A stretch of 52,188 bases of DNA, the filler included, from Porpidia crustulata (taxonomy: Eukaryota): NCBI GenBank assembly GCA_964255105.1. It is 3 parts of 3 records of this genome, joined end to end, with 100 filler letters (N's around TTAATTAATTAA, not from the genome) between each part and the next. Parts side by side here need not be neighbours in the genome. Positions count along the whole stretch, not along the records: positions 1 to 17,382 come from CAXUWE010000221.1; 2 more parts are not named here. One strand, written 5' to 3'. Positions 1,891-2,597 of the stretch are shown piece after piece (within the stretch, counting starts at the first letter, position 1; every line of letters starts with the position of its first letter). The translations under genes were made by a program, and so were the position numbers. Under the pieces are notes generated by a model, which searched no databases, was not told the DNA's origin, and saw only the letters and a list, made by a program, of their open reading frames with translations.

Positions 1891-2597
1891 ATGCAGTCCT
1901 TCCTCATTCTATCATCTTTGTTGTCTCTGGCGCCCGCTGTACGTTCGGCGCCCACCGCAACTCCTGATTCCGGGTTTGGCTCAGGATCACAACCCATTTG
2001 CGTGGATGGCAAGAAGTATGTTGTACACAAACAGAATGGACCATTCCCTGGACCACCCCGACTAGTAGCTGGTGAACAATGCAGCGCCAATGAGGCAGGC
2101 GTAAGCGTCCCCCCCCCCCAGCTATTCAGTTACCATCATACTATCTCAATCGTTACTAATACATTACACAGTGCTCTATCAGCGACACAAAATCCTACGG
2201 CGTCACCATAACCGTCACAATGGGATTTGACCTCGGCCTTGACTTCTCCGAAATCGTCCATGCTGGCGTGTCTGCCTCCGTGTCTGTCGGCACATCCACC
2301 ACCGAATCGATCACCACCAGCCAAAGCTGCCCTAAGTTCTGCACCTGCGGTCTGCAAGCGACGCCCTCACTATACCACGTCGAAGGTGATCAGCTAAAGT
2401 ATCCTCACAACCTCGCCGGGCCCGATTCGGACTGCGTCGGTGCCGAAGGCGTTAATGGGCCTTACTCTGCCGACTTGCCGGTTTTGATTCCTGGTGCCGC
2501 AGCGAACAACCAGGCTGTTGTTACCTTCTCGGCTTGTAGAGTGGCCCACACATTTTGTTTGGCGGATCCTAAATTACCGCTATGCCCAACCACGTAG
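1891..2597 (+). CDS. Small secreted cysteine-rich protein (211 aa after splicing); candidate aerolysin/ETX-MTX2-like beta-pore-forming protein
   Basis: Exon 1 is 1891-2100 with a hydrophobic signal peptide MQSFLILSSLLSLAPAVRSA. Intron 2101-2171 reads GTAAGC..TACTAAT..CAG. Exon 2 (2172-2597) joins in frame to the 2220-2597 ORF. The product has 10 Cys. The pore-forming call is inference. Confidence 0.8.

Follow-up and report, generated by a model that had tools for sequence, protein, structure and literature searches.

Aerolysin-like proteins are a kind already in print for fungi: they include the Laetiporus sulphureus lectin LSL, a natterin-like protein known in Raffaelea (PMC7441637), Cry51-like proteins known in Beauveria (PMC12099005), VdAMP2 of Verticillium dahliae, an antibacterial protein that aids competition in soil (bioRxiv 10.1101/2020.01.30.926725; also treated in the FEMS review PMC9438471), and the killer toxin K62. 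PMC12691639 describes K62 as having an aerolysin core with three predicted disulfides, one of them linking the stretch ahead of the insertion loop with the C-terminus, and as forming heat- and detergent-resistant oligomers, and it places more than 1,000 K62-like proteins mostly in Ascomycota, including KTA1/YCL049C. Here we describe a spliced gene at positions 1891 to 2597 of a 52,188-nucleotide stretch of the Porpidia crustulata assembly GCA_964255105.1 (the whole stretch, joined from parts of three records, is called the window below). Its product is a small, cysteine-rich and apparently secreted protein that, judging from structural models of its family, very probably has an aerolysin fold. 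The gene and the parts of its product are laid out as follows, in window coordinates:

1891..2100, plus strand: exon 1, 210 nt and 70 codons, with the ATG at 1891; carries Cys 37 and Cys 64 and encodes a signal-peptide-like N-terminus, then the first two long beta-strands of the predicted core
1891..1947, plus strand: probable signal peptide of about 19 residues, with cleavage after ..AVRS placed by eye
2101..2171, plus strand: intron of 71 nt, GT..AG, reading GTAAGC...TTACTAAT...ACAG
2172..2597, plus strand: exon 2, 141 codons and the TAG stop at 2595-2597; carries 8 Cys and encodes the insertion hairpin together with the other three long strands of the predicted core
2196..2246, plus strand: hairpin arm 1, YGVTITVTMGFDLGLDF, in strict hydrophobic/polar alternation
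2247..2261, plus strand: hairpin tip, SEIVH; hydrophobic residues are conserved at two of its positions
2262..2321, plus strand: hairpin arm 2, AGVSASVSVG, then the Ser/Thr-rich tract TSTTESITTS

Read directly from the window, in which the gene is single-copy, splicing yields a joined reading frame of 211 codons closed by a single terminal stop; left unspliced, the exon-1 frame meets a stop at codon 107. A CTAAT branch-like site lies in the intron, 12 nt upstream of the AG. The stop-to-stop list of open reading frames (ORFs) divides the gene into overlapping fragments at 1849-2211 and 2160-2597, as the initial annotation had pointed out when it proposed the intron at 2101-2171 and a secreted protein with 10 Cys and about 190 mature residues. 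These observations on the gene and its peptide are confirmed: the joined frame is open to its terminal stop, the same intron position recurs in ortholog loci (see below), and both the cysteine count and the mature size are correct on the spliced frame. The intron also contains an 11-C run at 2109-2119, a homopolymer prone to sequencing length errors, which at this place leave the reading frame unaffected.

The N-terminus of the product, MQSFLILSSLLSLAPAVRS, is strongly hydrophobic, with means of up to 2.34 on the Kyte-Doolittle scale in windows of 11 residues and a hydrophobic core of FLILSSLLSLAPAV, and full-length homologues begin alike, with a hydrophobic N-terminal leader. It thus resembles a signal peptide, from which we infer secretion. 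The presumed mature chain of about 192 residues has 19% Ser+Thr and no Trp and is acidic, with 16 D+E to 9 K+R, and the 10 Cys occupy residues 37, 64, 71, 123, 127, 129, 158, 192, 199 and 208. When counted over the family alignment in the numbering of P0008, an annotated full-length homologue of 212 aa from another fungus, conserved Cys columns occur in the N-terminal part at C38 (43/43 sequences), C65 (35/48) and C72 (56/68), and in the rest of the chain at C125 (93/94), C131 (95/95), C160 (91/91), C193 (94/94) and C209 (91/92). An additional pair, C129/C200, marks a subfamily: both residues are present in 11 of 88 sequences, one in 3 and neither in 74, a co-occurrence as expected of a fifth disulfide and the one observation that speaks for a particular pairing. 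The core is probably held together by four family-wide disulfides and a fifth, subfamily-specific one.

Between Cys 71 and Cys 123, which bracket it, lies the segment that had been likened to the membrane-insertion hairpin of aerolysin-type toxins. The peptide claimed in that comparison is found letter for letter in exon 2, with both arms alternating, and its flanks are Ser/Thr-rich as described (SISDTKS upstream, GTSTTESITTSQS downstream). In the single sequence this alternation is moderately unusual: among 5000 composition-preserving shuffles of the window's protein, 186 reached the first alternation peak, 332 the second and 47 both. What lifts it above chance is its conservation across the family. 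In an alignment of 98 sequences, with about 70-94 homologues per column over the hairpin, the fraction of hydrophobic residues along arm 1 (P0008 Y80-F94) runs 0.91, 0.12, 0.85, 0.10, 0.85, 0.06, 0.89, 0.02, 0.90 and 0.05 over the first ten columns, then 0.84, 0.04, 0.96, 0.06 and 0.78; along arm 2 it runs 0.96, 0.03, 0.99, 0.03, 0.68, 0.06, 0.98, 0.22, 0.73 and 0.07. At the tip, the two columns that line up with I28 and V29 of exon 2 have hydrophobic fractions of 0.98 and 0.96 (about 90 sequences), and around ten Ser/Thr-rich columns follow directly after arm 2. The amphipathic pattern of the hairpin is thus shown, at the level of the alignment, to be under selection.

The family to which the protein belongs carries no annotation. 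A HMMER profile search of 1.84 billion representatives returned 96 proteins at E<=1e-3 (of which 24 reach E<=1e-10 and 5 reach E<=1e-30), these relatives being clusters at 50% identity, and a word-indexed homology search returned 5 proteins with exon 2 alone and 6 with the 98-sequence alignment. Many members share the length of about 190-230 aa, the hydrophobic leader and the same layout. None of the 98 family members reaches any Pfam gathering cut-off, including those of Aerolysin (PF01117) and ETX_MTX2 (PF03318); three match ETX_MTX2 below threshold (best E 0.045), and neither exon product of the window gene matches Pfam at E<=10. Sources were looked up for 31 clusters, and an organism was named for 17, all of them labelled hypothetical or uncharacterized; the sole other source label seen was 'opacity protein-like surface antigen' from JGI. 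Twelve of the 17 come from Sarcosagium (twice), Protoblastenia, Candelaria, Vezdaea (twice), Piccolia, Calogaya (twice), Bacidia, Candelina and Caloplaca, which we take to be lichen-forming, and three of these genera are filed by NCBI under leotiomyceta incertae sedis. The other five come from the non-lichen fungi Elaphomyces, Microdochium, Poronia, Knufia and Apiospora. The family hence appears to be concentrated in lichen fungi. A tblastn search of plasmids with the family member P0009 gave one match, on a Streptomyces plasmid (E=2), which lies antisense to an annotated coding sequence and was rejected as a chance match.

Both hallmarks of the aerolysin superfamily are present in the AlphaFold2 model of P0008: an elongated core of five long antiparallel beta-strands and, between strands 2 and 3, an insertion (pre-stem) loop at about residues 79-121. 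The residues equivalent to exon 1 form strands 38-49 and 58-66. The structural matches of this model cover residues 31-208, nearly the whole mature chain, and no Pfam domain is found in it, in agreement with the initial annotation, which had seen no obvious separate lectin domain; a separate receptor-binding domain, usual in the superfamily though not present in all its members, is likewise not found.

By analogy with aerolysin-type toxins and with K62, we consider it reasonably likely that the protein acts as a secreted pore-former. Its mature chain of about 192 residues would hold scarcely anything beyond the superfamily's pore-forming core, the five strands and the insertion loop, with no disulfide inside that loop. 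The soluble secreted monomer would bind a target membrane, and several would assemble there as a ring. The amphipathic hairpin, at about residues 79-120, would swing out and join neighbouring hairpins in a transmembrane beta-barrel, and the barrel would leak ions and small solutes from the target cell. By analogy with K62, which is antifungal, and with the antibacterial VdAMP2, the most likely role of such a protein, and the default one, would be to antagonise other microbes or cells encountered by the fungus.

The main alternative accepts the aerolysin fold and denies it lytic activity: like some aerolysin-fold proteins, the product would be a binding, adhesion or wall-associated protein, locked permanently in its soluble shape by its disulfides. 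Two observations weigh in its favour and against a pore-former, namely that the structural matches include proteins not known as pore-formers, and that the chain has neither a receptor-binding domain nor an obvious activation peptide. Still, the strict alternation and the Ser/Thr-rich flanks are conserved across some 70-94 divergent sequences per column, a conservation needed by a membrane-inserting hairpin and going beyond the needs of a packed loop. In addition, the 98-sequence alignment has no conserved Cys column between C72 and C125 (P0008 numbering), so that the disulfides need not tether or restrain the hairpin, and K62 itself oligomerises despite its core disulfides (PMC12691639). We therefore regard a non-lytic protein as unlikely, though far from negligible, and retain pore formation as the working account.

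A further alternative is that the product is a generic small cysteine-rich secreted effector of some other fold, in which the alternation belongs to the usual edge strands of a beta-sandwich and both the models and the likeness of the hairpin mislead. We consider this improbable on three grounds. First, the model of P0008 is confident, with a predicted local distance difference test score (pLDDT) of 81.8 and a pTM (predicted template modelling score) of 0.71. Second, that model and an independent AlphaFold2 model of the window's own exon-2 product (m363235f08a33; pLDDT 76.4) match proteins of the aerolysin, ETX-MTX2 and Toxin_10 types almost exclusively, and across the two models and two search methods the same superfamily comes out on top of 48,161 representatives; a fold unrelated to aerolysin, the outcome named beforehand as refuting the initial annotation, was not what the models returned. 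Third, the sequence profile independently picks solved beta-pore-formers. When compared with all PDB sequences, the family profile gave 15 matches at E<=10, of which 12 are beta-pore-formers: Cry78Aa twice (E 6.9e-4 and 1.9e-3), monalysin (0.051), Tpp80Aa1 (0.059), six CPE enterotoxin entries (0.3-0.6), a natterin-like protein (2.1) and parasporin-2 (2.5). All 12 lie within the hairpin-bearing profile positions 10-92, and the remaining three matches are NPC2 (twice) and one TLP-IPT entry. Language-model neighbours, which serve as leads only, include ETX_MTX2, Aerolysin and monalysin clusters for exon 2 (0.89-0.92) and DUF6060, monalysin and Aerolysin/ETX clusters for P0008 (0.84-0.88). The aerolysin-type interpretation is thus supported.

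The model of P0008 has no Foldseek match at E<=0.001, either against PDB or against BFVD. Its best fold match in BFVD is A0A7G8JUX8 (Foldseek probability 0.97, E 0.04, TMq, the template modelling score on the query, 0.33), an uncharacterized protein of 325 aa from a Malassezia sympodialis mycovirus that may be, on this modelled likeness, another mycovirus-borne aerolysin-like toxin, like K62.

The gene model itself is supported by comparison with orthologs. A scan of metagenome contigs with an alignment of close relatives yielded 12 loci, 11 of which contain the whole gene; these 11 represent 5 distinct sequences, probably from one or a few related species. In all 11, the exon-1 homologue is exactly 210 nt long and is followed, at the same codon boundary, by an intron of 68 nt (GTAAGT...TACTAAC...CAG) that breaks the frame, the first stop being codon 85 when it is not spliced. 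Between the window gene and the ortholog L001, protein identity is 64% in exon 1 and 75% in exon 2, with ratios of nonsynonymous to synonymous substitution (dN/dS) of 0.175 and 0.186, respectively, at a dS of about 1.0-1.4; just 45/76 columns of the intron align, whereas the exons are conserved as protein. The annotated homologues from other fungi, P0008 and P0010 (228 aa), are uninterrupted over the junction (..AGEECAAHEAG|CSIASGK..), and the homologue P0007, which was called by a prokaryotic-style reading, continues across an in-frame intron at that position. About 420 nt 3' of the stop codon the window has a complete 5S rRNA gene (3015-3134, plus strand; Rfam RF00001, 70.1 bits). Of the four ortholog loci inspected, three (L001, L010 and L011) likewise have 5S-like matches downstream of the gene, which fits orthology. 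The remaining alternative, that the splice is wrong and the locus consists of two unrelated short ORFs or a decaying pseudogene, can be set aside in view of the intron position and canonical signals kept in 11/11 loci, the purifying selection on both exons in the proposed frames, the collinearity of annotated homologues over the junction and the single terminal stop of the joined frame. By these comparative criteria the locus is one intact, spliced gene under purifying selection, and the gene model, whose splice support is comparative, is established short of RNA.

The protein differs from the described aerolysin-type proteins in size, in domain content and in its cysteines. Whereas K62 has 272 aa and, according to PMC12691639, begins with a domain of about 80 aa that ends at a dibasic Kex2 site (in 57% of homologues), the window protein has about 17 residues between the presumed signal cleavage and the first strand, with no such domain; no dibasic site is conserved in the family, and the homologues read do not share the KK at residues 41-42. 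Four to five disulfides are predicted for the family as compared with three for K62, a comparison made with the published description rather than the sequence, and the conserved Cys occur at spacings comparable to those of K62 (by the residue numbers in PMC12691639). The 'minimal disulfide-stabilised' design proposed initially is correct in small size and Cys-richness and is less novel than was assumed, since the K62 family already shows it (PMC12691639). VdAMP2 is likened here by description only, and no Verticillium protein occurs among the 31 clusters with looked-up sources. LSL (PDB 1w3a) is a basidiomycete protein with an N-terminal beta-trefoil lectin domain, unlike the window protein. 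The toxins of PF03318 and PF01117 (epsilon toxin 1uyj, parasporin-2 2ztb, CPE 8u5f, monalysin 4mjt) are larger, with receptor-binding or pro-domains. The Bombina maxima aerolysin-like protein (PDB 6lhz) is an animal protein with 2% sequence identity in the alignment, and no Cys-richness is shown for it in the data examined here. To our knowledge, ETX/MTX2 and Aerolysin toxins generally lack core disulfides. The family described here is unannotated, outside Pfam cut-offs, small and unusually Cys-rich.

A further Pfam family to compare is DUF6060 (PF19535), which occurs in Bacillota and fungi. It is the top Pfam-named language-model neighbour of P0008 (0.88), and P0009 gives a sub-threshold match to it across about 100 residues (18.1 bits against a cut-off of 26.5; E 0.002); none of the 98 family members reaches that cut-off, and 97 of them show no match. 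DUF6060 was found in 3/401 sampled Bacilli genomes (E<=1e-4) and in 1/5 in an earlier search (E<=0.01), with one match above the cut-off, and not in the plasmid record or in 14 control genomes. Four Bacilli proteins, of 237-256 aa and with a signal peptide, were located:

L136, 1147-1902, plus strand: DUF6060 protein
L137, 1204-1947, plus strand: DUF6060 protein
L138, 1405-2115, minus strand: DUF6060 protein
L139, 1159-1869, plus strand: DUF6060 protein

They resemble the family in having Cys..Cys followed by an alternating, Ser/Thr-rich hairpin and differ from it in lacking most of its Cys and in a longer N-terminal part. Alignment of the family with these four by hhalign gave E 4.3e-4 over 79 columns, with a probability of only 34%, so that the two may be remotely related. 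From their similar taxonomic spread, we conjecture that DUF6060 may be the same as the K62-like set.

The other genes of the window are ordinary for a filamentous ascomycete (Paf1, RibD_C, two HET-domain ORFs, an amino-acid permease, DAO, JmjC/cupin, FMO, a Cdc14-like phosphatase, NAD kinase and PTPA) and suggest no functional cluster. The two large HET (heterokaryon incompatibility) ORFs lie at 10260-12839 (plus strand, E 1.4e-8) and 15145-17430 (minus strand, E 3.3e-24). The Cdc14-like phosphatase (35128-37142, minus strand) is split between two adjacent ORFs, one with DSPn (36471-37142) and one with DSPc (35128-36462), which are probably separated by an intron. It is overlapped on the opposite strand by an ORF of 422 aa (34840-36108) that has no Pfam match and lies in a stretch of raised GC (0.55). 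Two other long ORFs, of 482 aa (38860-40308, minus strand) and 956 aa (43054-45924, plus strand), are without a Pfam match at E<=0.001.

Among the papers listed in searches for aerolysins or secreted pore-formers in lichens, a description of this family was not found; a member could be listed in Data S4 of a preprint on the Xanthoria parietina secretome (bioRxiv 10.1101/2024.08.16.608140). That study kept only Foldseek hits at E<0.001, a threshold that the P0008 model does not reach, so that such surveys would class these proteins as novel. Should the protein form pores, the aerolysin-like proteins of fungi would gain a family that has so far no annotation. With about 190 residues and four to five predicted disulfides it would be among the smallest versions of the aerolysin fold, and its small size would make it a convenient model for membrane recognition and assembly by the core alone. 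The molecular effectors of lichen symbiosis are almost unknown, and the share of presumed lichen fungi among the named clusters (12/17) points to a secreted membrane-active factor in that symbiosis. A bolder reading, which we regard as very improbable, is that the protein is a lichen-enriched minimal pore-former, secreted by the fungus onto the photosynthetic partner or other residents of the thallus for controlled permeabilisation of their membranes. If this were true, the family would be a candidate for the long-sought means of inducing carbohydrate release by the algae, or of policing the growth of the partner, rather than being a simple killing toxin.
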